Below are positions 6,636 to 46,914 of a stretch of DNA of 64,000 nt, piece by piece; position 1 is the stretch's first letter; the number at the start of each line of letters is the position of its first letter. The stretch lies in NCBI GenBank assembly GCA_007376405.1, contig VMGD01000006.1, positions 19,337 through 83,336 of the forward strand, read 5' to 3'. This DNA is from Microgenomates group bacterium Gr01-1014_7. Lineage in GTDB: Bacteria > Patescibacteriota > Microgenomatia > Daviesbacterales > UBA10151. The translations under genes were made by a program, and so were the position numbers. The notes beneath the pieces are model-generated. The model was not told the DNA's origin. It searched no databases and worked only from the letters and a program-made list of their open reading frames with translations.

Positions 6636-6672
6636 CTTATACTTAATACTCCATACTATATACTAAATACTA
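6636..6672. repeat. direct repeat (tatacttaatact...atact periodic) upstream flank of the standalone four-helix-bundle gene
   Basis: cttatacttaatactccatactatatactaaatacta; partner copy at 7040-7085 shares the core ttatacttaatact. Confidence 0.7.
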
Positions 6673-7038
6673 ATTAGTCTTTAGGGATTTGATCAGGCCG
6701 TTGATTAATTTACTGACTTGGACTGATTGTTCTGCTATTTTATTAAAATCTTCTTTTGGCAGATAACCTACGTCTCTGGCTACCAGTAATTGATTTTGCA
6801 GTTCGGTTAATGAACCTTTGGCCATATAATAAAACTGCAATTTTTCCTTTTTAGTTTGCCTTGAGAAGCCTTCAGCAATATTGGAACTAATCGAAACCGC
6901 GCATCTCCTCATCTGGTCAATGAGCGAATACAATTCCTGTCTAGGGAATCTATCTGTAATTCGATAAATCATCAGTACTAAATTATGTGCCTCTTTCCAC
7001 GCTATCAGATCGGTGAATGAGCTTATTTTTGGCCTCAT
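6670..7038 (-). CDS. four-helix-bundle protein (TIGR02436 / 23S rRNA IVS protein family; Avd-like)
   Basis: 122 aa; DLIAWKEAHNLVLMIYRITDRFPRQELYSLIDQMRRCAVSISSNIAEGFSRQ...FYYMAKGSLTELQNQLLVARDVGYL matches the four-helix-bundle/Avd family consensus. Confidence 0.8.
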   Translation of the reverse strand: MRPKISSFTDLIAWKEAHNLVLMIYRITDRFPRQELYSLIDQMRRCAVSISSNIAEGFSRQTKKEKLQFYYMAKGSLTELQNQLLVARDVGYLPKEDFNKIAEQSVQVSKLINGLIKSLKTN

Positions 7039-9346: not shown

Positions 9347-11122
9347 TTATGCCTTTTCTAATAATCGGGCCTTATTGGTTACACGAAACTCAAGTTTTCT
9401 GCCAAACATTAAGGAGGTTTGAGCGTCAATTGCCGGAAGAGATGAAATAGTAATAAGAATAATAGGTACCAAAAGCCACTGCATATATGACCAGATTTTT
9501 TTAAAAATGGACCAATTTTTCGGTCTTTTGGGAACTGTTTTTTCATGAACATAAATGGTGGCAAAAAGTCCAAAAAAGGCAGCAGTCAGTATCCAGGAGG
9601 AAACAATCGGCAAATTTACCGAAAGGACGGAAGCTTTAAAGTTGGGATTAACTAAGGGAATAAGCAAACTGCCAAATGTCACAAAAATAGCCAAAAACCC
9701 CCATTTCAAATCCCCCCAAACTTTAAAGAGTACTCGATCGGTTTTATTCCAGAAATCTATCTCTTTAGTAAAGTATTGTTTGATAATGTAAGGTATATGT
9801 TCAACTCCATATGCCCATCTTTTAATTTGCAAATACTGATTTTGGAAAGTTTTTAAAAGGGTTGTATCTTGAACAGCATCTGCAGAAATAGGCAGAAAAT
9901 GCGGAACAACCTTATAATCTCCGTTAAAATGAAAGTAGGCTTTCCAGTAAAAGCCGTTATCATCATTAACTTTATCAGGAATCCAGCCGCCAATATCCAA
10001 AAGCGCTTTTAGCGAAATAGACATTGAAGAGTAATTCATATATTTGTCAGAACCGACCATTTCGGCCAATTGCCAGAATGAAGTGCCGGCTGCCATCAGT
10101 CTCATCGGGGTAGGAGTCTGCCAATAATTATTATGATATAAAAATACTCCGGTAAAGGTGCGTTTATCTCTTTCGCCCTGAGATAGGGATAAGTATTTAT
10201 GTAAAGCTCCTGCCAGAAACTGTTGATGAATTACAAAATCAGCATCGAGAGTGGTTACAAAAACATCTTCTATTTCGATCCCTTTTGTTTTTAACTGCGG
10301 AACTATTTTATTTATCATCCAGTTTTTATTTGAACCCTGACCTGCTACTTCACCAGGTAAGTTATAAGGATGAATGGTGGTAAAAACCCCGGCAATTTTT
10401 CTCCCTATTTTTTTAAGATACTGCTTTGTCTCAGCAATTTTTTGTGGATTATCCCTTTCTTCAAATCCTACAGCCAAAAGTATTTTATCTTCGGGATACT
10501 TTGAATTTATAATGCCCTCAAAAGTGGGTCCAAGAATATATAATGCTTCTTTGTAAGTTGGGATTAATATTAAATGGTAGTATTTTCCCCAAACACCCGG
10601 AAAATCATTTTGTAAAAGTTGTAACCAATCCTTATCTTTAGCTGATTCCATTTTTTTATATCCGACTATAATTAAAACCCCGATTCGCAGAGCAGTCAGA
10701 AACCAATAAACATCGGCAATCAAAATTAGATAGGCAACCGCGTAGGGAAGAGTGAACGAGAGCCAGACAGGAGAAGTTAAGGCCAGCCAGGTCAAGGCTC
10801 CGGGTAAAATCTCCAAAAATCTTTCAAAGCCGTCTTCATGTTTTAAAACGAACTCTCTTTCCAGATTTCGGAAAAGAATAAATTTTCTGGAAAGAAGGTG
10901 ATGAGAAGTTATTCCCAAACCTGCCCCAATTAAAAAAAAGGCAGCCAGAACATTGACTCCGCCCTCAAGCAATCCTGCGCCAAAAAAACCTGTACAAAAC
11001 CCCGCGATTATAAATATAAATCCAATCAGGCTGTATTTGATATCCTTAATCAGTCTTTGGATTACTTCCGATATATAAAAAAATGACAAAAAGCCAATAA
11101 AAAAGGTCAGTAAAATACGCAT
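9347..11122 (-). CDS. membrane-bound family 2 glycosyltransferase (cellulose-synthase-like topology)
   Basis: N- and C-terminal TM bundles around a cytoplasmic domain containing TTLDADFV (DxD) and QxxRW-like RWAYG. Confidence 0.6.
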   Translation of the reverse strand: MRILLTFFIGFLSFFYISEVIQRLIKDIKYSLIGFIFIIAGFCTGFFGAGLLEGGVNVLAAFFLIGAGLGITSHHLLSRKFILFRNLEREFVLKHEDGFERFLEILPGALTWLALTSPVWLSFTLPYAVAYLILIADVYWFLTALRIGVLIIVGYKKMESAKDKDWLQLLQNDFPGVWGKYYHLILIPTYKEALYILGPTFEGIINSKYPEDKILLAVGFEERDNPQKIAETKQYLKKIGRKIAGVFTTIHPYNLPGEVAGQGSNKNWMINKIVPQLKTKGIEIEDVFVTTLDADFVIHQQFLAGALHKYLSLSQGERDKRTFTGVFLYHNNYWQTPTPMRLMAAGTSFWQLAEMVGSDKYMNYSSMSISLKALLDIGGWIPDKVNDDNGFYWKAYFHFNGDYKVVPHFLPISADAVQDTTLLKTFQNQYLQIKRWAYGVEHIPYIIKQYFTKEIDFWNKTDRVLFKVWGDLKWGFLAIFVTFGSLLIPLVNPNFKASVLSVNLPIVSSWILTAAFFGLFATIYVHEKTVPKRPKNWSIFKKIWSYMQWLLVPIILITISSLPAIDAQTSLMFGRKLEFRVTNKARLLEKA

Positions 11123-13766: not shown

Positions 13767-15926
13767 TCAGGTGCCAACCACTTCAAAGGTAGAGCCACCT
13801 GAGTTTTTGGAAACTTCAATTCTGACCGGGAATTCTTCTTTCAGTTCTTCCAGATGGGTGATGATAAGAATTTTTTCAAAGTCATTTTTTATTGTATCCA
13901 GCACTTCTACAATTCTGGTCCGACCCTCTGCATCTTGTGTTCCAAACCCTTCATCAATTACCAAAAATTGCAATTTTGCCCCGGCTCTTCTGGTTAAAAG
14001 TTTCGACAGAGCAATTCGGATTGCAAAATTTACCCTGAACGCTTCCCCTCCTGAATATAAAGAATACTCTCGTTCGCCCATCTCATCGGAAATAATAATG
14101 TCCAGGGTTTCCACAATTCCTTTTTCCCCGTCCTCCATTTTAGTTTTGGTTTCTTTTTGGGTTTGCAAGCGTATATTCATCCGGCCGGAAGTTAGTTTAG
14201 CCAGCAGTCTGTTGGCTTCCGTCTCTATTTCAGGAATGGCAGTTTCAATAATCATGGCCTGAATCCCCTTTTTTCCAAAAGCCAAAGTTAGCTCCTCAAA
14301 GCCTCCTTTTTCTTTTTCCAGATTATTTTTTTCGAGTTTTTTTTGCTCAAATAATTTTTCCAGCTGCTCGGAGCGGCTAATCAGTTCGGTTGCCTGTCCC
14401 AGTAAATTTCTGGCTTCTTTTTCTTCTGTCCTTAATTTGTTTAACTCCAGCTCTTTTTGATTAACTTGAATTTCCAGTTTAGTTAAATCATCAGCCAAAT
14501 TAGGCAGTTTATTTAAATCCTGCTCCAATTTTTCAATTTGGGATTTTTTATTTTTAAACAGTTCCCGCAGCTCTACCACCACTTTTTTCTCGGATTCTAG
14601 CGTTGCCTGGTCAGCAATCAGTTTTTCTCTTTTACCCTGCAGAAGTGAGATTTCCTGAAGTTTTTTTAAGGTTTCCTGGTATTTATGGTCATCTAATTTT
14701 ATGGAACTGCTTTCCGTTTGAAGTTTTAGGATTGCTTTTTCTTCATCATCAGTTTTAATCCCGCTGATAATTTTTTCTAATTCTTTAATCTTTAATCTTA
14801 AATCTTTAATCACTTTGTGCTTATTATCTTTTCCAATTTCTTGTCCGCAAGTTGGGCAATTGGCAAATTCTTTGCTCAAAGCTTCAAGATGGGATTTAAT
14901 TTCCTCTAATTTTTTTCCTAAATTTTCTCTTTCCTGGTTTTTTAAAGCCAGTGCCGATTTTATTTTAGTTAATTTATTTTCCAGCTCTAATTTTTTTTGG
15001 GAGAAAGTTGTATATTCTTCTTTTTCTTTTTCTAAAATCTTTAGTTTTTTTAATTTTTCCTCAAAGCCCGGCAGTTCTTCCAATTCTTTTTCCAGAGTTT
15101 TTATTTTGCCTGCTCTCATCTTTCCCTGGGAAAGAATCTCATTTAGCTCGGTTTGTAAACCAGTTAGAGTTTGTTTTAATTTATTCTGCTGTCCATAGGT
15201 GGCATTTAAGGCAGCTTTTGTTTCAATTTGGCTTTTTAACTCTTTTTCTAAAGAGCTAATTTTTATCTCTATTTCAGTTATTTTTTTCTCCGCTAAAATT
15301 TTCTTTTCTTGACTGGCTTCTTTTTGGGACAGTTCTGCCTCTATTTCCAAAAATTGGTATTCCAAAAGTTTTAATTTACTTGTCAAATCTTTAACTTTCT
15401 CTTTGGCTTTTTCTTCCAGCTTGTCATAATGGGATAGTCCCAAAATATCTGCCAAAATCCTTTTCCTGTCGGTTGGACCTTTGGTGGTAAATTCATCGGC
15501 ATGTCCCTGACGCAGGAATGAGGAATTGGTAAAAGTTTCAAAAGTAAGATGCAGAGTATCAATAATTTTTTGCTGGGTGGTTTTGATGATTCCTTCTGTT
15601 AAATTATTTTTGCCTGACCAAAATTCCAGCGCGCTTGAGCCCCCATGTTTTAGCGACCGCTGTCTTTTTACAATGAATGTATGTCCATCCAGTGAAAAGC
15701 TAAATTCGACAAACATATTTTGAGCGCCAAGATGGACAAGCTGGTCGGATGAATCCCCGGCCCGTGATGTCCCCCAAAGACACCAGGTTATTGCATCCAG
15801 CAGAGAGGATTTCCCGGCTCCGTTTGGTCCGGAAATAGCAGCCAGATGAAATTTAGTAAATCTAAGTTCCGGTACATTTTCTCCGTAACTTGTAAAATTT
15901 GATAACGTTAATTTAACTGGTATCAT
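13767..15926 (-). CDS. sbcC: SbcC-like SMC-family ATPase (exonuclease SbcCD subunit C)
   Basis: Walker A SGPNGAGKSSLLDAI, long coiled coil with central CPTCGQ zinc hook, signature SGGEAFRVNFAIRIAL, Walker B LVIDEGFG. Confidence 0.85.
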   Translation of the reverse strand: MIPVKLTLSNFTSYGENVPELRFTKFHLAAISGPNGAGKSSLLDAITWCLWGTSRAGDSSDQLVHLGAQNMFVEFSFSLDGHTFIVKRQRSLKHGGSSALEFWSGKNNLTEGIIKTTQQKIIDTLHLTFETFTNSSFLRQGHADEFTTKGPTDRKRILADILGLSHYDKLEEKAKEKVKDLTSKLKLLEYQFLEIEAELSQKEASQEKKILAEKKITEIEIKISSLEKELKSQIETKAALNATYGQQNKLKQTLTGLQTELNEILSQGKMRAGKIKTLEKELEELPGFEEKLKKLKILEKEKEEYTTFSQKKLELENKLTKIKSALALKNQERENLGKKLEEIKSHLEALSKEFANCPTCGQEIGKDNKHKVIKDLRLKIKELEKIISGIKTDDEEKAILKLQTESSSIKLDDHKYQETLKKLQEISLLQGKREKLIADQATLESEKKVVVELRELFKNKKSQIEKLEQDLNKLPNLADDLTKLEIQVNQKELELNKLRTEEKEARNLLGQATELISRSEQLEKLFEQKKLEKNNLEKEKGGFEELTLAFGKKGIQAMIIETAIPEIETEANRLLAKLTSGRMNIRLQTQKETKTKMEDGEKGIVETLDIIISDEMGEREYSLYSGGEAFRVNFAIRIALSKLLTRRAGAKLQFLVIDEGFGTQDAEGRTRIVEVLDTIKNDFEKILIITHLEELKEEFPVRIEVSKNSGGSTFEVVGT

Positions 15927-16037
15927 ATAAAGGTATGAATTTTATCAATTAAAAATCCTTCCATTGTTTTGCAAGTATAATCAACAAAGAGATATTTGAC
16001 AACGGTCCTATAATGTGATAGTATTGCAGTATTAAAT

Positions 16038-16628
16038 ATGCTAGAAACAGGAAATTATATTTTCCTTCCATATACTGATGCTGAAAAAGAAATCCTTATT
16101 GCAGATGGAGCTGCAGTTTATTTATTGGAAGGACAATCTATCGGTAGTCAAAGAAGGGGTGGAAGAAGGTTTTGGTCAGATTGGCACAAAGGCCATCCAA
16201 TAGAAGATATAACCTCAAGGATTTATGAAGTAGCTATTTGGCCAAATGATTTCTTTGTCCCCAGAACTTTTAATGAACCCAAACTCGAACAGGAAGAATT
16301 AGTTAGAGTTAATAGGGAGGAAACTCGATTAAGGTTAGGAATTCCAAATTATACAGAAATTCTACCGGAAGCCCCAGAGGTAACTGAAGTTCTATTTAAA
16401 CACTTTGATTTAACCAGAGTCCGTTTACTTGGGGCAAAATATAAAACAAAAGATGGACACTGGACTCACATTAGAACTAATACTGCTATTAATGAATCCG
16501 GTTCCGTCGTCGCCCATGTCGGTTGCTTCCGCGCTGTCTACGGTCCGGACGTCCACGACTGGTATGCCCGCGAGGGCGATCCTGATCTTGCTGCCGCCCG
16601 CTGGGGAGTGAAATTATTAAGGACTTGA
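16038..16628 (+). CDS. DGR1 target (variable) protein; VR at C-terminus
   Basis: 196-aa ORF whose last ~36 codons (16498-16605) are the variable repeat paired with the TR at 16928-17035. Confidence 0.8.
   Translation: MLETGNYIFLPYTDAEKEILIADGAAVYLLEGQSIGSQRRGGRRFWSDWHKGHPIEDITSRIYEVAIWPNDFFVPRTFNEPKLEQEELVRVNREETRLRLGIPNYTEILPEAPEVTEVLFKHFDLTRVRLLGAKYKTKDGHWTHIRTNTAINESGSVVAHVGCFRAVYGPDVHDWYAREGDPDLAAARWGVKLLRT
16498..16605 (+). repeat. DGR1 variable repeat (VR)
   Basis: 108-bp repeat at the 3' end of the target ORF. Differs from the TR at 16 positions: 15 where the TR has A, plus 1 non-A at the 5' edge. Ends in the GC-rich IMH-like gctgccgcccgctggg. Confidence 0.85.
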
Positions 16629-16927
16629 ATTTTGGTTTCTTGGTAATTTTGGATTTTTACTTCTTGGTTTTCCGAATTTTTTCTGATAAATTATCTAAAG
16701 TAGGCAGTGAGGAGTTAAACAAGTTTTTAGCTTCCGCCTATTTCTAGAATCTTTCATAGCCGGAGCCATGCACCAATTGGTTTATGGGGGTGCTTAAGGA
16801 AATTTTACTAGACACTCCGGATATTTCTCTTTGTTCTTGTACCAGACGGTGCAGGGCGGATAAAATACAGTGGAAAGAGCGATCAATCCACAGTGAGTTT
16901 TTGTACGGAGAGATATTCTGTAAACGG

Positions 16928-17035
16928 CCGGTTCCTACGTCGCCAATGTCGGTTACTTCAACGCTGACAACGGTCCGAACGTCAACAACTGGAATGCCCG
17001 CAAGAGCAATCCTAATCTTGCTGCCGCCCGCTGGG
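16928..17035 (+). repeat. DGR1 template repeat (TR)
   Basis: Non-coding copy of the VR. In the VR frame it reads GSYVANVGYFNADNGPNVNNWNARKSNPNLAAARW, with many AAC/AAT codons. Carries A wherever the VR differs. Confidence 0.85.
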
Positions 17036-17059
17036 TAGTTTCTAGAAATTTTAAAAGAT

Positions 17060-17420
17060 TCAGGGTAAGTTTTGCTTGGTGGAACGAATCCATCCGCCAA
17101 GCATCTTGCCTATTTCTTGCAAGTATCCTTGCAGCTCCAAATAATGCTTATCTTTTAAAGCAAGGCTATCTTTGGCAAGTCTTAAAAGAATTTTTAATAA
17201 ATCTAGTTTTATGCTTATTTGTTGTAAGGTAGATATTTTGTTATTTGAGGTTGGAATTGATAAAAGCAGTTCAAAGATTTCCAGGGTTAAATTATCCAAT
17301 TTTTGACCAAGAGTATACTTTTTAGTTTTAGGAAATTTAATGATTAAATAACTTAGGTTTTGATAAAAATCGTAGAGTTTAGCAAAAATCGGGATGTCAA
17401 GGCTAGAGACAGGCAGTGTG
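17060..17420 (-). CDS. avd: DGR1 accessory variability determinant (Avd-like four-helix-bundle protein)
   Basis: Frame open from about 17420 to 17060. Reads ...LDIPIFAKLYDFYQNLSYLIIKFPKTKKYTLGQKLDNLTLEIFELLL...YLELQGYLQEIGKMLGGWIRS, matching the four-helix-bundle/Avd consensus. No canonical in-frame ATG; the ORF caller started it at a TTG (17299). Confidence 0.6.
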
Positions 17421-17428
17421 TGTGTGTG
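17416..17428. repeat. (GT)6.5 dinucleotide microsatellite in the avd1-RT1 divergent intergenic region
   Basis: gtgtgtgtgtgtg lies directly downstream (minus sense) of an out-of-frame ATG (17432-17430). One extra unit would put that ATG in frame with avd1. Confidence 0.9.
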
Positions 17429-17442
17429 GCATTCTTTAAAAG

Positions 17443-18426
17443 ATGATTACTCATAAATCGTATTCTCAACTTACATCAGTAGAAAATTTATTTCAAGCTT
17501 GGAGTGAATTTAAGGTAGGCAAAAGAAAAAGAAAAGATGTGCAAGAGTTTGAAAGAAATCTGGAAGATAATCTATTTGATTTACGTTTTAAATTAAAAAC
17601 CAAAACATACAGACACGGAAACTATTTTGCATTTTATGTGCATGATCCAAAACAAAGGCATATTCATAAAGCATCGGTACAAGATAGGGTAGTTCACCAC
17701 CTGCTTTATCAATATTTATACACCCTATTTGATAGTAGTTTTACTTTTGATTCATATTCATGCAGGTTGGAAAAAGGAACTCATAAAGGGATATTACGGC
17801 TTGAGAATTTTTTGCGGAAAGTGAGCAGAAATTATACAGGGTCTTGCTGGGCGCTAAAACTGGATATAAGGAAGTTTTTTGCAAATGTTGACCACGATAT
17901 TTTAATGGAACTTTTAAAGAGAAAAATTAATGATAAAGATCTTTTGCGGCTGCTTAAAGAAGTAATTGATAGTTTTCCTCAGGGCATTCCTCTTGGTAAT
18001 CTAACATCCCAGATATTTGCCAATATTTATATGAATGAATTAGACCGGTTTATTAAACATAAACTTAAGATCAAATATTATATCCGCTATGCAGATGACT
18101 TTTTAATACTGTCTATTAATAAAAATAATTTGCAGTCTCTAATTAAACCAGTTGATAAATTCCTGCAAGAAAAATTAAAACTCGAACTTCATCCTAAAAA
18201 GATTATCCTAAAGAGATTTGATTGGGGAATAGATTTTCTAGGGTATATTGTTCTGCCTCAGTATATTTTACCAAGGACCAAAACTAAGAAGAGGATGTTT
18301 AGAAAATTAAAAGAGAAATTAGAGTCAGAAAATTTTAATCAGTCGCTGCAATCTTATATTGGGTATTTAAGTCATGCTAATGCATATAATTTATCGAACA
18401 AGATTGCCACGCAACGCTTCCAATGA
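17443..18426 (+). CDS. DGR1 reverse transcriptase
   Basis: 327 aa. RT motifs include IRYADDFLIL (YxDD) and the DGR-diagnostic PLGNLTSQIFANIYM (IGxxxSQ instead of the group II intron QGxxxSP). Confidence 0.9.
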   Translation: MITHKSYSQLTSVENLFQAWSEFKVGKRKRKDVQEFERNLEDNLFDLRFKLKTKTYRHGNYFAFYVHDPKQRHIHKASVQDRVVHHLLYQYLYTLFDSSFTFDSYSCRLEKGTHKGILRLENFLRKVSRNYTGSCWALKLDIRKFFANVDHDILMELLKRKINDKDLLRLLKEVIDSFPQGIPLGNLTSQIFANIYMNELDRFIKHKLKIKYYIRYADDFLILSINKNNLQSLIKPVDKFLQEKLKLELHPKKIILKRFDWGIDFLGYIVLPQYILPRTKTKKRMFRKLKEKLESENFNQSLQSYIGYLSHANAYNLSNKIATQRFQ

Positions 18427-18436
18427 CGAGTTGTTA

Positions 18437-18511
18437 ACTTTCTAAAATTTGGGCGGCGAATTTTTCCAGACTCTTTATTTTTTCCGCAGAGAATTTTTTG
18501 GCTTTAAAGTA
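18437..18511 (-). pseudogene. duplicated 3' fragment of sbcD (last 25 codons)
   Basis: Minus-strand translation YFKAKKFSAEKIKSLEKFAAQILES* vs intact SbcD C-terminus YFKAKKFSAEKIKTLEKFAAQLLES* (19119-19196). About 85% nt identity over ~75 bp. Confidence 0.65.
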
Positions 18512-18874
18512 TTAATTACCTGTTTTTCCGGTGATAATAGTGAGTTTTCCAATAAGAGATTTTCTGGTAGATTTATTTAGAAGAGATGTTAATTTTTTAT
18601 CTATCTGTTCAAGTGTTAAATTTGCAGACACTCCAATAACTCCGGTTGATTTACTTGTCGGGGCTAATGTTTTAAAATCTTTAATATTGAGAGTGACTAG
18701 GATTCTACTTTCCTTACCCGCGAACTGATAGACTTTAGGGTCTGGTAAGGCGCTTTGCCCATAATCACCGGTAATATGTTTAACATCAAATCGGCTATTT
18801 GTAATAGGCAAGCTTTGACGAAAGTAAAATCCCTCATCCAGCAATAGCTTGTGTTTGTAAAATCTCCGAGTCAT
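18512..18874 (-). CDS. DUF5615 family PIN-like protein (second copy)
   Basis: KLLLDEGFYF N-terminus and TLNIKDFK motif, similar to the 2328-2672 gene. Confidence 0.6.
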   Translation of the reverse strand: MTRRFYKHKLLLDEGFYFRQSLPITNSRFDVKHITGDYGQSALPDPKVYQFAGKESRILVTLNIKDFKTLAPTSKSTGVIGVSANLTLEQIDKKLTSLLNKSTRKSLIGKLTIITGKTGN

Positions 18875-19103
18875 TCCTAGATTGGCTTAAATCCTCAACC
18901 AATTCACTAATTGCGCCCTCAATAGTTTTTAGCGGTACCCAAGGATAGCCATCATGAATTGATTCAACAGTACAGCCTTCTTTTAAACGTTGAACTATAA
19001 CAGCAATTGGTATCCTGGTGCCTGCAATGCATGGTGCGCCACCCATAATATCTGATTTAGATAATATATAAGCTTTTTTCTTCATATGTTTATTATACCA
19101 CAT
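18834..19103 (-). CDS. DUF433 domain protein (second copy)
   Basis: ILSKSDIMGGAPCIAGTRIPIAVIVQRLKEGCTVESI matches DUF433. Overlaps the downstream DUF5615 gene by 41 nt. Confidence 0.6.
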   Translation of the reverse strand: MWYNKHMKKKAYILSKSDIMGGAPCIAGTRIPIAVIVQRLKEGCTVESIHDGYPWVPLKTIEGAISELVEDLSQSRNDSEILQTQAIAG

Positions 19104-19118
19104 TAATAGTATGACAAA

Positions 19119-20267
19119 CTAAGATTCAAGCAGTTGGGCAGCGAATTTTTCCAAAGTTTTTATTTTTTCAGCAGAGAATTTTTTTGCTTTAAAGTAACTC
19201 TGCAACGCCTCAACAGGAGTTAATCTTTCAACTTCTTCTTGTCCGTCTATTTTTAACCTTTCTTTTCTTTCAACATTCCGGGAAATTCCGGCAATGTAAT
19301 GAGCAGAGGATAGAGCCTTTTTAATTTTATCCATCTCCAAATTTTGCTCTAAATCAGCAGGGATATTTAAAGTTAGTCTAACGACTTTATCAGCTACATC
19401 ATGTTTTGAAATTTCATCTAAAATAGTTTGGGTAGGATTGGAATCGTTAGCTTTTAAGTCAATATCAATAGACAAAAACCTACGACAATTAGTAGGGATA
19501 AATTGGAAGTTAGTGGTCTTTGCAATTTCCACCAGACATATTCCTTTTTCTTCTTTTTCTTCGCCAAAATCAATCCTATGAGGGGAGCCGGCGTAAACTA
19601 CTAAAGGATCCTTGGATAAAACCTGGTGTTTGTGAATATGACCCAAAGCCACATAAGATAATCTTCTGTCTTGAAGTAAAGGTAGGGGGACTGTGACATC
19701 ATTTCCAATTGCCATACCTTTTTCTGAACCATAACTTGCGCCTTCTACCTCGCAATGCGATAAAAATATGGCAGGGGATTTTGGTGTAATTTTGTCATAT
19801 AAAGATTTTAATTTATCTCCAACGGTTTTGTATTCGTCTTTGTGTAACCAGGGTAAAGTTATAACTTGCAGAGTGCCTGATTTAGTGGGTATTTTTAAAA
19901 GTTCGGGTTTTCGGGAAACCCAGACATTATCTATTTCCAGGGCAGAGTAAATATCCAGAGTATTGGCTTTGCCCTCTGCATTGGGAGTGTCATGATTGCC
20001 TACAACTAAAACCACGGGAATTCCGGCTTTGGCAATTTTTTTAATTCTCTCTCCAAACCCCCTTTGCTGGGTTGGATTTGGATCACGGGTTTTGTAAGCA
20101 TCTCCTGCAAAAACCACAGCATCAACTTGATTTTCTATTGCCGTATCAACAATAAAATCAAAGGTTTTTAGAAAATCCAAAAGGCGGGTAGATAAACCTG
20201 TTTGCGGATCCAGTTTGGCATAATTTTCCATGCCAATATGAATATCCGCAAAGTGTAATAATTTCAT
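19119..20267 (-). CDS. sbcD: exonuclease SbcCD subunit D (Mre11-like metallophosphoesterase)
   Basis: MKLLHFADIHIG, GDAYKTRDP, GNHD and GHIHKHQ phosphoesterase motifs. Start placed at MKLL (20267); the 15 upstream in-frame codons are encoded by a GC-rich hairpin and are probably 5' UTR. Confidence 0.9.
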   Translation of the reverse strand: MKLLHFADIHIGMENYAKLDPQTGLSTRLLDFLKTFDFIVDTAIENQVDAVVFAGDAYKTRDPNPTQQRGFGERIKKIAKAGIPVVLVVGNHDTPNAEGKANTLDIYSALEIDNVWVSRKPELLKIPTKSGTLQVITLPWLHKDEYKTVGDKLKSLYDKITPKSPAIFLSHCEVEGASYGSEKGMAIGNDVTVPLPLLQDRRLSYVALGHIHKHQVLSKDPLVVYAGSPHRIDFGEEKEEKGICLVEIAKTTNFQFIPTNCRRFLSIDIDLKANDSNPTQTILDEISKHDVADKVVRLTLNIPADLEQNLEMDKIKKALSSAHYIAGISRNVERKERLKIDGQEEVERLTPVEALQSYFKAKKFSAEKIKTLEKFAAQLLES

Positions 20268-20377
20268 GTTTGGATTACGTCCCCCGAAGGCGGGAGGCAA
20301 GGTTCTGCACACGCGAAGTATAATATATCACATACTGAAGCGTGAAGCAGGTCCTTATATCATGGTAAAATGGGCAA

Positions 20378-23665: not shown

Positions 23666-24213
23666 TTTTTCTTTTTCCTAATTGACTTTTTAGTAGGTTT
23701 ATGATATCTTTTATTTGTAGACCGAGCCTGAGCGTCGACCAGAGTTGAAATACATTCTCTTAAACGCCCATCGGTCTTTTTTATTGCTTTAATAATATCT
23801 TCCAAGTTCAAAATTTTATCCGGTTTTATTTTCTTATCAAAAACATCCTTTGCTGCATAATGAGCAGGTGGCCTATTACCAATTCTGGCAAAGCTTATTT
23901 CATGTTCTATCTTATTATTATTCTTGAGTAAAGAAGTAGCAAACTGTTTGATAATTTTATCTTTTCCAGGGTATTCAGTATCAATAGTAACGCTAGATTT
24001 TTCTTTAAGGTTGCTTAATAGATAAAATACTCCTACTGAAAACAGATAATAGACAAAAAGTGAGGTAAAACCATGAAGACGAAAGATCTCCTGAACTTTA
24101 CGTTTTAATCTTCTTGGAACTACTACTGCAAATTTAGTACCGTTAGAATAGGCAATTACTGTATCCTTACTTGTTTGCTCAATCTTTCCAGACTGATCAA
24201 TTTGGTAGGTCAT
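23662..24213 (-). CDS. hypothetical membrane-anchored protein
   Basis: 183-aa ORF with one TM helix. Confidence 0.35.
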   Translation of the reverse strand: MTYQIDQSGKIEQTSKDTVIAYSNGTKFAVVVPRRLKRKVQEIFRLHGFTSLFVYYLFSVGVFYLLSNLKEKSSVTIDTEYPGKDKIIKQFATSLLKNNNKIEHEISFARIGNRPPAHYAAKDVFDKKIKPDKILNLEDIIKAIKKTDGRLRECISTLVDAQARSTNKRYHKPTKKSIRKKKK

Positions 24214-24281
24214 ATTCTAGGAATTATAACAAAATATTGACATTTACCCACCCCCGTGCTAATCTGAAAATAGTTTTAACT

Positions 24282-25073
24282 ATGGAAAAGGTAAATGCTG
24301 AGCTGAAAACGAAACCAGAAGATCCTGCGGAGGTTGAAAGGGGGAAGCGCGTTAATCTTTTAGTTAGACTTGACTTTTTAGGTAGAACAATTGATAAGGT
24401 GGCACCGGATCTTAGGATGTTTGTTAAACTTCCGGGAGGTTACGAAGGCGATACCATTGTTTTTCTTACAAAACGGAAAAAGCCGGGACAGGTAACTTAT
24501 CCGAATGGTCAATCAACGGAGTATCAAAAGGATGAAACATTTGTTCTAAGACCTTCGTGGGGAGATAACGTTGATATTCATCCACCTATAATGAATGAGT
24601 TTACAGGAGATGCCAAAACAAGTCTGGTAGATCCGATTATAGAAGAGGCTGCTGCTAAAGGCCTTTCCTGGGAGGAATTTGAAGATAGAATGAAACGCTC
24701 GGGTGGAAAAATAGAAAGACTCTATCCCGCGAGAGTTAAAAAACCATTTAGTGAAATAGAGAGGGATGCTGCACGATTTTTATCAACTGGTGTATACGGA
24801 GGAAGAAATACTCCTTATAAACCATTGAATATGGAGAATAGGCCATTTCCGGAGCAGTTATTAGTGGGAAATTTTTATTTTTATAAGAAACCTCTTCAAA
24901 AGGGTGAAACTCTAACGCAAAGAATAGAGGAAACTGATAGAGCGCTAAATAAATGGTATAGAGATCAGCAGGATTTACAAAGACGTCAAGCAGAAACTCC
25001 AGTAGAAACCCCTGAACAACCAAGTAGGGGAGGTTTGCTCCAGGCTGTAAGAAGAGCTATTACGCGACGCTAA
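24282..25073 (+). CDS. hypothetical protein
   Basis: ORF from MEKVNAELKT. The longer ORF starting at 24171 would overlap the divergent upstream gene. Confidence 0.4.
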   Translation: MEKVNAELKTKPEDPAEVERGKRVNLLVRLDFLGRTIDKVAPDLRMFVKLPGGYEGDTIVFLTKRKKPGQVTYPNGQSTEYQKDETFVLRPSWGDNVDIHPPIMNEFTGDAKTSLVDPIIEEAAAKGLSWEEFEDRMKRSGGKIERLYPARVKKPFSEIERDAARFLSTGVYGGRNTPYKPLNMENRPFPEQLLVGNFYFYKKPLQKGETLTQRIEETDRALNKWYRDQQDLQRRQAETPVETPEQPSRGGLLQAVRRAITRR

Positions 25074-41399: not shown

Positions 41400-41608
41400 T
41401 ACTTTTAGGAAGTCTCAACTTTGAGAATTAAGCTGTAATAACTCGTCATTCTGGGGAACGAAGTGACACCAGAAATCAGATTGCTGAGGTTAGAGGTGTT
41501 GCCAAAGATGAACACCTTGATTCTTATATAGGTGAAGTTGTAGATGGTAAACTCTCTGAACCGGAATTTGAGAAAGAAGGCAGAGCCTGGAAGAAAAAGA
41601 GTCAGGAT

Positions 41609-42574
41609 ATGAAAAAACTAACTGAAATTGAGCAAAAAAGTAAATCAGGCCTTAAATTGTCACAGGATGAGCTGATCTTTTTATATGAAATAGATTCATC
41701 AATTGAGGGATTTGGATACGGCGATGATCCAAGAGTAAAGGAGCTGCGTTTTCAGAGAAAACCGGAAGAAGATATGCTAATTATTTTTGGTTCCGAGCCG
41801 GACCAGATTGCCGGATCAGCCGGGGGAATCACCGCAAATACCAGAGCATATGTTGGCCCACTGGAAAAAGGTATTTTTGACAAATTTGAACAATTTGGAA
41901 TAGAGCATATTTATACCTCTTTCCCTGAAGGAAAAATAAGAAGGGAAACTGTTGAAATTGGGGGAACAGACTTTAAGCAGATAGCTCAAGAATTAGAGGA
42001 TAAACTTAATATAATAGATACCCTAACTTGGGAGAAAACAGGAGAGATTCTTAAACAGGTTGAGGGCGGATCAGTTCAAATTAGTGCTGAGACTACTCAA
42101 TTTTTAAGGCAACTATTTGAAAGGCAGATCAATGTTTCAGGATATGCTCTAGATATGCTTAAAAATTCGGAATTCACCACCAGTCCCACACCTATAAACA
42201 TAGATACAGTTAGACTAAAAATTTCTGCACTGGACCTTAAGGGTACACCCACTACAGATCAAGTATATGCCAGAGCTAACGAACTAGGACTTGATCTTTG
42301 TCCAGCAGAAGTAGGTCCCCACAAAAGATTTAAAGATACTAATGAACCAATGGGAGATTGGGAATATATTGCTATGAAGCAAATGACTGACCGCGGTGGC
42401 CATCTGGATGTCTTCGTGCTCGGTCGTGATGGCCGTGGTTTGTGGTTGGCTGGCCGTTGGGCGGATCCTGACCATGGGTGGCCTCCCGAGGATGAGATTG
42501 TTTTTCGTCTCCGCAAGTCTGAAACTCAACCACTTAAACCCTCTGGATTCTTTTCCAGATTTTTGAGCCGTTGA
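41609..42574 (+). CDS. DGR2 target (variable) protein; C-terminal CLec-like VR
   Basis: 321 aa. The C-terminal TDRGGHLDVFVLGRDGRGLWLAGRWADPDHGWPPEDEIVFRLRK is the VR. Its frame is open upstream to 41432 without another start codon. Confidence 0.8.
   Translation: MKKLTEIEQKSKSGLKLSQDELIFLYEIDSSIEGFGYGDDPRVKELRFQRKPEEDMLIIFGSEPDQIAGSAGGITANTRAYVGPLEKGIFDKFEQFGIEHIYTSFPEGKIRRETVEIGGTDFKQIAQELEDKLNIIDTLTWEKTGEILKQVEGGSVQISAETTQFLRQLFERQINVSGYALDMLKNSEFTTSPTPINIDTVRLKISALDLKGTPTTDQVYARANELGLDLCPAEVGPHKRFKDTNEPMGDWEYIAMKQMTDRGGHLDVFVLGRDGRGLWLAGRWADPDHGWPPEDEIVFRLRKSETQPLKPSGFFSRFLSR
42386..42516 (+). repeat. DGR2 variable repeat (VR)
   Basis: 131 bp. Differs from the TR (42847-42977) at 20 positions, all with A in the TR. 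Confidence 0.9.
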
Positions 42575-42846
42575 TACTTTGAAACTTTGTTTGAAATTTT
42601 TATATAATTATTACGGATAGGTTGTTTTGAACGGCTACGGCTTTTTGAGGCCTTTCCGGCAAATGTAAATTGAGAACAAGTAAGGTTACGGCTTTGCCTG
42701 GAGTGATCTACATTCTGTCATTAAAAAAAGAAATACTTGGTGTGGTGTGCTTTTGCGGATTCATCCGCGGATAAAATACAGCCTGGCGTCTTCCGCCAGA
42801 TAGTGGATTACACAGGCAGTGAGGTTAGTAGGGCACATCATACATT

Positions 42847-42977
42847 ACTGACCGCGATGGCCATCTGAATGTCTTCAAGCTCAATCGTGATGGCAATGGT
42901 TTGTGGTTGAATGACAATTGGGCGAATCCTGACAATAGGTGGAATCCCGAGAATGAGATTGTTTTTCGTCTCCGAAA
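42847..42977 (+). repeat. DGR2 template repeat (TR)
   Basis: In the VR frame it reads TDRDGHLNVFKLNRDGNGLWLNDNWANPDNRWNPENEIVFRLRN, with eight AAT codons. Confidence 0.9.
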
Positions 42978-43334
42978 CTATTTCTTTCCGCGTCTAACCG
43001 GCGCGGTTTTTTGTAGACCTAAACTTCTCTTCCAGCCCCAAAGCATCTTTCCGATCTCATCCAGCTTAACTGCAATATCCCCATATTGTTTATGGGAAAT
43101 AAGTTTAGCTTCCCAAGCAGTAGAAATTAGGAATTTAATAATATCTACTATAAAAATACAATCGGATAATTTATCTGCCTTTTTCTCTTTTTCGGTAAAA
43201 TATGCAGTATATGATAATTCTAAAAGGTCGAGGAATTTATTTTCTATCCTTGAGCCTGTTGTAAACCGCCCGGACCGGGGAATATGAGGAGAAATATTCA
43301 TCCAAATCAAATATCCTTCCTTGATCCGGTTCAA
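42978..43334 (-). CDS. avd: DGR2 accessory variability determinant (Avd-like four-helix-bundle protein)
   Basis: 118 aa; C-terminal half FLISTAWEAKLISHKQYGDIAVKLDEIGKMLWGWKRS matches the four-helix-bundle/Avd family. Its stop codon abuts the TR end. Antisense to the TR and RT, as in DGR1. Confidence 0.7.
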   Translation of the reverse strand: MNRIKEGYLIWMNISPHIPRSGRFTTGSRIENKFLDLLELSYTAYFTEKEKKADKLSDCIFIVDIIKFLISTAWEAKLISHKQYGDIAVKLDEIGKMLWGWKRSLGLQKTAPVRRGKK

Positions 43335-43351
43335 TATGGAAGATTTTTCAT

Positions 43352-43370
43352 GAGAGAGAGAGAGAGAGAG
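43352..43370. repeat. (GA)9.5 dinucleotide microsatellite at the 5' end of DGR2 RT
   Basis: tgagagagagagagagagag directly follows an ATG at 43350. The RT reading frame runs through the tract but is +1 relative to that ATG. Confidence 0.9.
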
Positions 43371-43495
43371 TTAGGGAGCTTTTCCATGCCAGATATAATT
43401 CTATCATTTCACTGGAAAATTTACTGGAATCATGGCATGAATTTTTAAGAGGTAAGAAAAACAGAAAAGATATTGCAACTTTTTCAATCCGGTTT

Positions 43496-44362
43496 ATGGA
43501 TAATGTCCTTATTTTGAACGAGGAACTCTTAAAAAAGACATATCAGCACGGAGGTTACTATGCTTTTAAAATAAACGACCCGAAACCAAGGAATATCCAC
43601 AAGGCCAATGTAAGGGATCGGATTGTCCACCATGCCATCTTTAGAATTCTTTACCCTTACTTTGAGAAAAAATTTATCTTTGATTCATACTCCTGCAGAT
43701 TAAATAAAGGCACCCATAAATCTATTTACAGATTCAGGGATTTATCAAGGAAAGGGTCTGTAAATAATACAAAACCCCTTTGGTTATTAAAAGGAGACAT
43801 CAGGAAGTTTTTTGCCAATATTGACCACGATATTTTAAAAAATATTTTACAAAGATATATTATTGATGAAGAAATTTTGTGGTTGATGGGAGAAATTATT
43901 GATAGTTTCCGGCCTGGTCTGCCACTTGGCAATGTAACCAGTCAGCTTTTTATTAATATTTATTTAAATGAATTTGACCAGTTTGTTAAACGGGATTTGA
44001 AAGTTCACAGTTATATCCGATATTGTGATGATTTTGTGATTATTCACACGGATAAAGTTTATTTAGAAGGACTTATCCCTAAAATATCACAGTTTTTAGA
44101 AGATGAATTAAAACTTTCACTTCATCCGGATAAAGTTTTTATTAAAAGACTCTCTTTGGGAGTGGATTTTCTGGGATGGGTACATTTTTCCCATCATCGG
44201 GTTTTAAGAACTGCTACCAAAAAGAGGATGTTCAAAAGGCTCAAGGGTAATCAACCTAACGAGACGCTAGCCTCTTATTTGGGCTTACTGAAACATGGCG
44301 ATACCTATAAACTTGTAAAAAAATTAAGGATGATAACTACGGAAAATGATTTAAATCATTGA
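43496..44362 (+). CDS. DGR2 reverse transcriptase (intact ORF from an internal ATG; conserved N-terminal region continues upstream to about 43325)
   Basis: RPGLPLGNVTSQLFINIYL (DGR IGxxxSQ motif) and IRYCDDFVII (YxDD). Upstream in-frame codons ...FHARYNSIISLENLLESWHEFLRGKKNRK align with the N-terminus of RT1 (THKSYSQLTSVENLFQAWSEFKVGKRKRK) but lack an in-frame ATG in the reference sequence. Confidence 0.8.
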   Translation: MDNVLILNEELLKKTYQHGGYYAFKINDPKPRNIHKANVRDRIVHHAIFRILYPYFEKKFIFDSYSCRLNKGTHKSIYRFRDLSRKGSVNNTKPLWLLKGDIRKFFANIDHDILKNILQRYIIDEEILWLMGEIIDSFRPGLPLGNVTSQLFINIYLNEFDQFVKRDLKVHSYIRYCDDFVIIHTDKVYLEGLIPKISQFLEDELKLSLHPDKVFIKRLSLGVDFLGWVHFSHHRVLRTATKKRMFKRLKGNQPNETLASYLGLLKHGDTYKLVKKLRMITTENDLNH

Positions 44363-44370
44363 AACAGAGG

Positions 44371-44631
44371 TTAGCGATAAGTTTGGGTAGTACGGCGTTT
44401 GATATCAACAATAATAACCTCTTTATTTTCTTCATCAATAAAATAAAAAACTCGATAATCACCGACTCTGATTCTATATAATGGAGGAATCCTGGAGGCA
44501 ATTTTATCAAATCCTCTGGGTTTTGGATCATTTTTGAGCTGAACTATTTTTTTGGCAATTAGTAACTGATAATCTTTTGGAAATTTTTTTAAAGCTTTCT
44601 GTGCCCGAGGTGAGTAAACGAGGTTATGCAT
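44371..44631 (-). CDS. RelE/ParE family toxin
   Basis: 86 aa; KKFPKDYQLLIAKKIVQLKNDPKPRGFDKI...YRIRVGDYRVFYFIDEENKEVIIVDIKRR fits the RelE/ParE fold pattern. Confidence 0.75.
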   Translation of the reverse strand: MHNLVYSPRAQKALKKFPKDYQLLIAKKIVQLKNDPKPRGFDKIASRIPPLYRIRVGDYRVFYFIDEENKEVIIVDIKRRTTQTYR

Positions 44632-44929
44632 CTAATTTAAGCTTCTTCATCAACTTTTCATGAGAAATACCCTTGCCTTTTTTAACAACGTCGAGTTCTT
44701 TATATAAAGAATCAATATAACCGGGTTGAACCGTATCTTCTTGAATATCTACCAGCTCTAAATAGGTATTTAAATCCAGTAAAATAGCTTTAGGTTCGCC
44801 ATGTTGGGTAATAATAACTTGATTTCCTTTGCGAGGCATGTTATCTAGAATACCGCTTAAATCCCGACGCAGATCATCCGCACCGATAAAGTTCTTTTTA
44901 AGCATGTCGGACAGAGATATTTGTTGCAT
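44624..44929 (-). CDS. Phd/YefM family antitoxin
   Basis: LSGILDNMPRKGNQVIITQHGEPKAILLDLNTYLEL is a typical Phd/YefM N-terminal domain. Overlaps the toxin start. Confidence 0.7.
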   Translation of the reverse strand: MQQISLSDMLKKNFIGADDLRRDLSGILDNMPRKGNQVIITQHGEPKAILLDLNTYLELVDIQEDTVQPGYIDSLYKELDVVKKGKGISHEKLMKKLKLDA

Positions 44930-46183: not shown

Positions 46184-46492
46184 ATGACACAAGTAATGAA
46201 AGCGTCAGTTGTAAGGCAGCAATGGAGCCAACTGCTTAATCAGGTATTTACCGACCAAACAAGGATAGTGGTTGAAAAAAGCGGTATTCCTGTAGCAGCT
46301 GTTATTTCAGCTAAAGAGTTAGAGCGGCTTACTAGAATAGATGAACAAAGACAAGCACGTTTTAAGGTGCTGGATGAGATACGAGGAGCTTTTGAGAATA
46401 TACCTGTTAAGGAGCTCGAGAAAGAAGTAAACAAAGCGTTAGCGCAAGTCCGGGCAGAAAATCGGGCTAAAAGAGCATTAAATAAAAAGTGA
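46184..46492 (+). CDS. Phd/YefM-type antitoxin (VapB-like)
   Basis: MTQVMKASVVRQQWSQLLNQVFTDQTRIVVEKSGIPVAAVISAKELERL is an antitoxin fold; overlaps the downstream PIN gene by 4 nt. Confidence 0.6.
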   Translation: MTQVMKASVVRQQWSQLLNQVFTDQTRIVVEKSGIPVAAVISAKELERLTRIDEQRQARFKVLDEIRGAFENIPVKELEKEVNKALAQVRAENRAKRALNKK

Positions 46493-46914
46493 TTTCAGCA
46501 GTTTTAGATACTAATATTTTAGCCTCGGGTACTGTTACTGCCTTAACCCCTCCGGGACAGATACTTGATAGATGGTGTGACGGACAGTTTGAGCTAATTG
46601 TATCAGAGCATATTATTGAGGAATTGGAAAGCACCCTCAAAAAGCCATATTTTCAAAAACATCTTAGTACAAAGGCTAAAATAGCATATATGGAACTTTT
46701 ACAAACTGAAACAACCGTTACTCCAATAACTGTAAATGTTAAAGGGGTGGCTACCCACCCTGAAGATGATTTGGTGCTTGCAACAGCAATTTCCGCTAAA
46801 GCTGATTATCTGGTTACCGGGGATGGGCCGTTAATTAGAAAAGTTGGCAAAAAATATAAAGGCGTCACATTAATCAGTCCAACAGATTTTCTTGAAATAC
46901 TTAAAGAGCTGTAA
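46489..46914 (+). CDS. PIN domain toxin (VapC-like, TIGR00305 type)
   Basis: MISAVLDTNILASG..., conserved acidic residues ...EELES... and DYLVTGD. Confidence 0.75.
   Translation: MISAVLDTNILASGTVTALTPPGQILDRWCDGQFELIVSEHIIEELESTLKKPYFQKHLSTKAKIAYMELLQTETTVTPITVNVKGVATHPEDDLVLATAISAKADYLVTGDGPLIRKVGKKYKGVTLISPTDFLEILKEL

Follow-up and report, generated by a model that had tools for sequence, protein, structure and literature searches.

A chromosomal diversity-generating retroelement of a Microgenomates bacterium with a putative phase-variable avd gene

Introduction

Microgenomates group bacterium Gr01-1014_7 is an uncultured groundwater bacterium of the Candidate Phyla Radiation (CPR), represented by a metagenome-assembled genome from which we have analyzed a 64-kb stretch of contig VMGD01000006.1 (hereafter the window, to which coordinates refer unless another contig is named). 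By its sequence features, a locus located between the sbcC and sbcD genes of this window is a genuine chromosomal diversity-generating retroelement (DGR), which we refer to as DGR1. It includes a target gene with a variable repeat (VR), a non-coding template repeat (TR), the avd gene – encoding the accessory variability determinant, Avd – and a reverse transcriptase (RT) gene, and is in itself an ordinary new member of an element type known in CPR genomes. Its control is apparently undescribed. A simple (GT)n repeat – (AC)n on the avd strand – is located just past the avd start codon, and we propose that it makes avd phase-variable and thereby switches targeted hypermutation on and off, heritably and reversibly, a reading to which we assign a probability of about 0.7.

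The regulation of DGRs is largely open, including the timing of mutation and how a good variant is retained. In the searchable literature we found no paper tying DGRs or Avd to simple repeats, frameshift or phase variation, and no report of phase variation in Patescibacteria.

Results

Organization of DGR1

The features of the DGR1 locus are as follows.

16038–16628, plus strand: target (variable-protein) gene, 196 aa (TSC87532.1), 5′-truncated relative to all homologues (212–252 aa)
16498–16609, plus strand: VR, at the 3′ end of the target open reading frame (ORF), with 15 of 16 TR mismatches at TR adenines
16590–16605, plus strand: GC-rich tract resembling an initiation of mutagenic homing (IMH) sequence, common to VR and TR, whose flanks diverge downstream
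16766–16918, plus strand: structured RNA domain upstream of TR, with four helices, conserved across the clade
16928–17039, plus strand: TR, non-coding, rich in AAC and AAT in the VR frame
17060–17432, minus strand: avd, body intact, out of frame with the ATG at 17430–17432
17416–17427, no strand assigned: (GT)6 simple repeat, (AC)6 on the avd strand, two bases past the avd ATG; OFF phase; proposed switch
17443–18426, plus strand: DGR RT, 327 aa (TSC87533.1), RVT_1 family, with its start codon 3′ of the repeat

A first-pass annotation of this DNA had reported 16 differences between VR and TR over 108 bp, 15 of them at TR adenines. Our recount agrees, the exception being a TR thymine opposite position 16506, and alignment of VR to TR – one of the checks it had proposed – confirms the adenine-specific mismatch spectrum; with 24 adenines in 108 nt of TR, 15 or more of 16 mismatches would fall at A by chance with P=2e-9. 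The similarity runs for 112 nt (16498–16609 and 16928–17039, offset by 430 nt), slightly beyond the 108 nt noted earlier. VR substitutions relative to TR affect only first or second codon positions in the 16038–16628 ORF, and the description of TR as rich in AAC and AAT when read in the VR frame holds at most of the variable codons. The lone non-A mismatch is located at the 5′ edge of VR, adjoining an A site. At the matching site the TR of a sister cassette, L001, has an adenine (AAC, where the window TR has TAC), and a later A-to-T change in a window TR that originally read AAC would explain the mismatch. No other VR for this TR was found in the window by an A-masked scan of both strands.

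The GC-rich IMH-like tract that had been proposed to close the VR is present (GCTGCCGCCCGCTGGG at 16590–16605), after which VR and TR diverge. The downstream flanks are GAGTGAAA on the VR side and TAGTTTCTAG on the TR side; both are kept in L001, and GATAGTTTCT is found 3′ of TR across the clade. No GC-rich inverted repeat or hairpin was found 3′ of VR; such a post-VR inverted repeat occurs in just 34% of DGRs (PMC5758913). The target protein, for which there is no Pfam match and no PDB sequence match, is predicted by modeling to adopt a C-type-lectin fold resembling TvpA and Mtd. The target gene starts at a distance of 110 nt from sbcC, and its product is missing ~55 N-terminal residues that all homologues have.

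The RT contains both the DGR motif and the YADD box attributed to it (IPLGNLTSQIFANIY and RYADD). Its best PDB match, over residues 7–318, is 8ub7_A (162 bits, with group II intron RTs scoring no more than 78 bits), whose sequence is that of brt from Bordetella phage BPP-1 (100% identity); the RT motif LGNLTSQIFANIY aligns to IGSLTSQLFANVY in Brt and YADD aligns to YMDD, and the GxxxSQ motif is likewise aligned. NCBIfam holds no DGR RT model, and the RT class is set by this motif and best-match comparison. An RT belonging to some other retroelement – a group II intron, a retron or a defence RT – beside a coincidental repeat pair would be compatible with the top NCBIfam match, the group II intron RT/maturase model TIGR04416. 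That match, at 144 bits, is far under the cutoff of 300, the best full-length PDB match is BPP-1 Brt, retron models score no more than 61 bits (cutoff 235), and defence-RT models are also below the group II score. Moreover, the RT is accompanied by an adjacent Avd and an A-specific VR/TR pair, 261 relatives are similarly arranged in CPR genomes, and an Rfam search of 15900–18600 found no intron or retron RNA, only a chance match to a long non-coding RNA (E=0.55). We consider this origin of the RT highly improbable, and the first-pass assignment to the DGR class, rather than to group II introns or retrons, is upheld.

The opposite-strand gene between TR and RT, previously described as Avd-like, matches both the DivGenRetAVD model NF033474 (87.1 bits, cutoff 80) and the bAvd family PF22296 (73.6 bits, cutoff 40), with no significant match in a PDB sequence search. 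Identification of the locus as a DGR thus follows from its A-specific VR/TR spectrum, an RT nearest to BPP-1 Brt and an Avd above curated cutoffs, together with a target of predicted C-type-lectin fold and VR polymorphism between assemblies that is confined to TR-A sites (see below).

A stretch of 150–200 nt 5′ of TR is conserved on the plus strand and contains four helices (16766–16787, 16819–16830/16907–16918, 16835–16856 and 16870–16891), the long-range one (16819–16830/16907–16918) closing ~10 nt before TR. RNAalifold applied to 35 loci gave 26 pairs, 25 of them with compensatory changes, including many G-U pairs; 90.3% of cells were paired, vs 64% in shuffled and 44–52% in slid-partner controls, and the covariation score of 0.742 (vs 0.285) was reached by none of 500 shuffles. 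There is no matching Rfam family. By analogy with the DGR RNA of BPP-1, this domain is probably a scaffold presenting TR to RT-Avd, and it may constitute a new RNA element of DGRs in this clade. A separate 9-bp hairpin (GCTTGGTGG...CCGCCAAGC, 17074–17102) is located on the plus strand 35 nt past TR, where the opposite strand encodes the last codons of avd. Only sublineages whose Avd has a C-terminal STKQ tail possess this hairpin, which may belong to the portion of the DGR RNA that follows TR.

The avd reading frame

The first-pass annotation had called DGR1 a complete mutagenic-homing cassette, which does not hold for the window assembly: the target lacks its N-terminal ~55 residues, and avd is frameshifted by the (GT)6 tract following its start codon, so that the Avd frame has no ATG, GTG or TTG before codon ~38, a point that had been overlooked. 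On the avd strand the gene begins ATG-CC-(AC)6 and is read as MPHTHTACL-stop. In an independently assembled European Nucleotide Archive (ENA) contig of the same strain, L004, the corresponding sequence is ATG CC(AC)7 TG CCT, which encodes a 124-aa Avd beginning MPHTHTLPVSSLDIPIF. Rebuilding the gene in silico with different repeat numbers gives a full-length Avd at n=4, 5, 7, 8 and 10 and none at n=6 or 9; there are two ATGs upstream of the tract, in two frames. The 64-kb window contains just two simple repeats, each at the avd 5′ end of one DGR.

The RT frame is independent of the repeat, since its ATG is downstream of the tract and there is an in-frame stop upstream. An RT start on the far side of the repeat in the (GT)n clade was considered and rejected, as the RT ATG is downstream of the tract.

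Recent activity of DGR1

Comparison of the window with L004 over 20,591 aligned bases reveals only two substitutions, at the adjacent positions 16578 and 16579 (GA vs CT). Both are opposite TR adenines, and they change VR codon 181 (GAT vs CTT, the TR codon being AAT). The first-pass annotation had named absence of VR polymorphism in deep read data as evidence against a DGR; the two assemblies do differ in VR, and solely at these two TR-A sites. Correspondingly, the 90% cluster of target proteins contains one further sequence, P0006 (encoded on L004), which differs by D181L alone. The remaining differences are two indels, one of which is the GT unit at 17416–17427, (GT)6 vs (GT)7. The on allele (n=7) and the off allele (n=6) of the strain therefore carry different VRs, which is a single observation. 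At 24937, within a plus-strand ORF at 24171–25073, the window has one copy of a 16-bp unit (ATAGAGCGCTAAATAA) and the other assembly has two in tandem; the duplication would frameshift the 300-aa ORF, for which a 224-aa product is called in that assembly.

A similar pattern is seen in a related pair of contigs, L117 and L014. Over 8 kb their sequences match except at a cluster of 16 differing positions, at two further substitutions and at an indel that changes repeat length. The clustered differences are without exception at TR-A sites of their VR, as are all 16 of their VR/TR mismatches. DGR1 was thus active recently, with one variant pair for this strain; exact-protein look-ups with the RT and a neighboring gene recovered no further alleles, the RT being found on one ENA contig only.

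These data bear on whether DGR1 is a decaying remnant that is non-functional in this genome. The lack of an avd start in the window, the missing N-terminal ~55 residues of the target and the one non-A mismatch could all be read as decay. Against this, the sole two substitutions over 20.6 kb are at TR-A sites of VR, the RT ORF is intact, the avd body is free of stops and coexists with an in-frame allele, and the non-A mismatch is accounted for by a TR that was formerly AAC, as in L001. We therefore regard decay as improbable, and a recently active DGR with a putatively switchable avd as the better description of the locus.

A simple repeat at the avd start in related DGRs

RT scans of GTDB genomes and of JGI and ENA metagenomes yielded 160 loci, all from CPR bacteria, in which the divergent avd-RT arrangement is the rule. 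Where the RT is at least 60% identical and usable upstream DNA is available, a simple repeat is present at the avd 5′ end in 56 of 61 loci, mostly as (GT)5-14, the others being (TCTG)9, a 35-nt CCTG-type tract, or poly-C/G. At 45–60% RT identity, 18 of 92 loci have a repeat, mostly poly-G of at least seven residues, plus (CT)18 and (GA)9. The repeat unit therefore varies by sublineage (GT, TCTG, the 35-nt CCTG type, CT, GA, poly-G) while its position is kept. Of the repeats in 1.08 Mb of fetched loci, 77 are at this junction and 56 in the remaining ~1.06 Mb. On IMG/VR viral contigs the repeat is present in none of 44 loci; a phage origin is unsupported, as the IMG/VR scan found no close relative on viral contigs (best 54%).

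The reading frame of avd differs markedly between loci with and without a repeat. Dereplicated repeat-bearing alleles comprise 22 ON and 39 OFF, a distribution that fits an expectation of one third in frame (binomial p=0.68), whereas avd is in frame in 79 of 80 repeat-less loci, with an in-frame ATG upstream and reading through the same position (Fisher 7e-18 for repeat-bearing vs repeat-less). The in-frame repeat-less set takes in close relatives with short or interrupted (CA)3-4. Among 56 distinct alleles, gain or loss of one repeat unit restores the frame in 35 of 37 OFF alleles and switches off all 19 ON alleles. Three same-strain pairs with 100% identical 500-nt flanks consist of one OFF and one ON allele – the window and L004, L116 and L117, and L143 and L145 – and differ in repeat number, as (GT)6/(GT)7, (TG)7/(TG)9 and G9/G8. 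In 41 of 50 OFF loci the avd body has an uninterrupted frame of 100 codons or more; most of the remainder are cut by contig ends, and the OFF loci are therefore not decaying pseudogenes.

The main rival to phase variation is that the DGR is constitutively active, with (GT)n an unstable but neutral stretch in a leader or a dispensable N-terminus and Avd made via a non-canonical start past the tract, reinitiation, or slippage of the ribosome or of transcription. It would accommodate the two thirds of assembled alleles that are out of frame, a high proportion if off means non-functional; (AC)n is stop-free in every frame, a CTG is directly past the tract in many loci, and ATC and ATT codons are present in the DIPIF motif. 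Yet the CTG is missing in many sublineages, and the interval from the tract to the conserved DIPIF helix of Avd contains no canonical start in any (GT)n locus, an ATG being always present 2–50 nt upstream of the tract. Use of an upstream in-frame ATG by repeat-less loci, including the close (CA)3-4 relatives, also speaks against initiation past the tract, and the presence of differing units at one site argues for selection on instability itself. We judge constitutive Avd synthesis unlikely, and phase variation of avd remains our preferred reading.

Further repeats were also seen. In the close relative L129 (RT 61% identical), C7 takes the place of (AC)n after the avd ATG, at ~215–253, and avd is out of frame; C8 or C5 would restore the frame, which suggests that one repeat type replaced another at the same site. 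In distant CPR DGRs, (GA)5-19 is located inside the RT ORF, ~540 nt from the start, and is in frame in all six assemblies (L021 4578–4599, L046 1865–1880, L048 2534–2553, L051 1761–1798, L074 842–865 and L081 2569–2578); it could represent either a further repeat-based switch or a variable insert of Glu-Arg. Tetranucleotide repeats are located 30–115 nt 3′ of the RT match in three distant relatives, as (ATGG)9 in L030 (5019–5054), (GGAT)6 in L039 (5118–5141) and (GTTG)6 in L071 (4974–4997).

A second DGR in the window

The second of the two simple repeats belongs to another DGR, DGR2, with these features.

41609–44362: DGR2, with VR2 at 42383–42516 and TR2 at 42844–42977; 20 of 21 VR/TR mismatches at TR-A
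42978–~43390, minus strand: avd2, divergent from RT2
From ATG 43350: RT2, which the ORF table starts at the internal ATG 43496 (288 aa)
43353–43370: (AG)9 tract between the avd2 and RT2 start codons; both genes read through the tract

With n=8 or 11 both genes would be full length, giving an RT2 of 336 aa with its N-terminal segment and an Avd2 of 135 aa, and with n=9, the window state, both terminate early. There is no DGR2 polymorphism, the second assembly being identical in both the repeat and VR2. The DGR2 repeat is thus placed to gate avd2 and RT2 together, which supports the idea of a switch.

A different role for the repeat would be to tune expression of the RT or the DGR RNA from the RT 5′ leader, possibly as part of a TR-RT transcript, rather than to set the avd frame. 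Promoter or leader repeats tune expression in Haemophilus and Neisseria. The tract ends 16–25 nt before the RT ATG and the divergent avd and RT starts are less than 30 nt apart, and the DGR2 tract is inside both reading frames. Against such tuning, the unit sequence is unconserved, making a specific RNA or promoter motif unlikely, and the frame statistics and one-unit restoration fit a coding switch. A promoter and terminator consensus scan gave counts no better than shuffles, with no convincing promoter hexamers flanking the tract. Tuning of expression seems to us a still weaker candidate than constitutive Avd synthesis, and we favor a switch acting through the avd frame.

Several further observations concern DGR2 and its surroundings. 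The ENA contig covering it, L165, begins inside target2, and its first 168 nt (window ~41444–41486) align uncleanly; heterogeneity or a repeat within target2 may have broken the assembly at this point. RT2 is followed by toxin-antitoxin-like pairs at 44371–44929 (ParE/PhdYeFM) and 46184–46914 (PhdYeFM/PIN), as listed in the L165 gene table. Both DGRs are bordered by small mobile modules, the RT of DGR1 being followed by DUF433/DUF5615 genes and RT2 by these toxin-antitoxin-like pairs. A stand-alone four-helix-bundle gene at 6670–7038 (minus strand), with 23S_rRNA_IVP and bAvd Pfam matches in the L004 gene table, is remote from both RTs.

Genomic position and history of DGR1

DGR1 is flanked by sbcC (13767–15926, minus strand) and sbcD (19119–20312, minus strand), both confirmed by family models. 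The first-pass annotation had described it as inserted between these genes. The map position is correct; a recent insertion is not sustained, since related DGRs share the site in at least three other species-level lineages, and the position is therefore old. A DGR is found between sbcC and sbcD in L108/L109, L095/L098/L099 and L125 (SbcD 70–76% identical), and adjoins an intact sbcDC pair in L006/L086. The association may be plain vertical synteny; a functional connection of SbcCD, a hairpin nuclease, to the integration of cDNA is purely speculative.

Two additional features are present between the RT and sbcD.

18434–18511, minus strand: sbcD 3′-end remnant, 78 nt (25 codons and a stop), adjoining the RT stop
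18512–19103: DUF433/DUF5615 gene pair, between the sbcD remnant and the functional sbcD end

The remnant forms a 77-nt direct repeat with 19120–19196 (84% identical), with eight synonymous and two non-synonymous codon differences. The repeat was considered as a target-site duplication and this was rejected, because the differences are mostly synonymous and point to an imported allele. The DUF433/DUF5615 pair is a recent arrival, and the remnant marks the former sbcD/RT junction; in the simplest history, recombination anchored in sbcD brought in a diverged sbcD allele together with the gene pair, and the old 3′ end stayed in place. The predicted earlier state is seen in L108 and L095, in which the sbcD stop is beside the RT stop without intervening genes. 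The closest cassette, L001, has 75.7% nucleotide identity and a different genomic context, and it too has a remnant of the upstream gene after the RT (91 nt at 10557–10647 of L001, with 14 synonymous and three non-synonymous differences). The same recombination route may move whole cassettes.

Discussion

The analysis documents the parts of a DGR, VR change at A sites, repeat polymorphism and its effect on the avd frame, and the conservation and enrichment of the repeat among related DGRs. Judged from comparative sequence data, the avd repeat appears to bear the full comparative signature of phase variation, with the classical signs of a contingency locus.

We envisage that a plus-strand RNA carries the structured leader (16766–16918) and TR and that, as in BPP-1, RT with Avd would copy this RNA with adenines miscopied, the resulting cDNA replacing VR. 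Slipped-strand mispairing at replication would alter n and move the avd body in or out of the frame of its ATG. Because Avd is required for RT catalysis in the BPP-1 system (bioRxiv 10.1101/2023.10.23.563531), the off phase – with loss of the Avd protein – should halt cDNA synthesis and freeze VR, and diversification would resume in the on phase. Each lineage would then be either ‘diversifying’ or ‘locked’, the window allele (n=6) being locked and that of the second assembly (n=7) diversifying.

Several points weigh against this interpretation. The repeat lengths are taken from consensus assemblies, mostly metagenomic, and may include consensus noise, and the two assemblies of this strain may share reads. 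The link of the on state to VR change comes from one pair in this strain, and the 5′-truncated target of the window may be non-functional. Any effect of the repeat on RT expression cannot be separated from its effect on avd. Finally, a proportion of about two thirds OFF assemblies is what neutral drift in repeat number predicts, and would also fit initiation that is blind to the repeat.

We lean, by a narrow preference, towards the broader view that simple-repeat phase variation is a general regulatory layer of CPR DGRs, with sublineages having independently recruited repeats at the same site. The recruited units would be GT, TCTG, CT/GA and poly-G, plus possibly (GA)n inside the RT. If so, a lineage could search for variants with hypermutation switched on, and fix a useful one by switching it off.

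If avd is indeed phase-variable, a slippage-prone repeat in an essential cofactor would split a population into explorers and keepers. There is also a practical consequence, in that gene callers truncate or miss avd in off-phase assemblies (and the RT as well in the DGR2 type), and surveys may misclassify such DGRs as incomplete or accessory-less.

DGR1 has much in common with the prototype DGR of BPP-1 (mtd-avd-TR-brt), including adenine-specific transfer from TR to VR, Avd, a VR at the C-terminus of a C-type-lectin-fold protein (predicted for DGR1), an RT that is 33% identical over its full length and has GxxxSQ and YADD motifs, a GC-rich IMH-like repeat end, and structured RNA around TR. 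It differs in being chromosomal in a CPR bacterium rather than phage-borne, in its gene order (target-RNA leader-TR-avd on the opposite strand-RT), in the absence of a GC-rich hairpin after VR, and in having a hypermutable repeat in the first avd codons. The main structured RNA of BPP-1 is downstream of TR, whereas that of DGR1 is upstream, its downstream region being antisense to avd. The DGR1 target has no detectable sequence similarity to Treponema denticola TvpA or Thermus aquaticus TaqVP; the proteins of its family are much smaller (196–252 aa), and the window copy is without the family N-terminal segment.

DGR1 also resembles the DGRs described in CPR and DPANN genomes (CPR set, Wu et al. 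2018, PMC5758913) in its phylum, unannotated target and ungrouped VR class, and in belonging to a set in which non-canonical architectures are frequent and RTs cluster together. In the papers examined we found no mention of simple repeats, a frameshifted avd or on/off control.

The contingency loci of Haemophilus, Neisseria, Campylobacter and Helicobacter provide the closest parallel for the repeat itself. They share with the avd repeat a tandem repeat past the start codon in which one unit switches the frame, repeat-number polymorphism in otherwise identical strains, varied units at one site, and an on fraction of about one third. Contingency loci are known mainly from host-adapted pathogens, whereas the hosts of DGR1 are environmental CPR bacteria, and phase variation of avd, if confirmed, would be an apparent first indication of such loci operating in the CPR. 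What is gated also differs: surface antigens and restriction-modification enzymes in the known loci, and in DGR1 the cofactor of a targeted mutator. By this analogy we propose that at DGR1 one stochastic diversity generator would control another.

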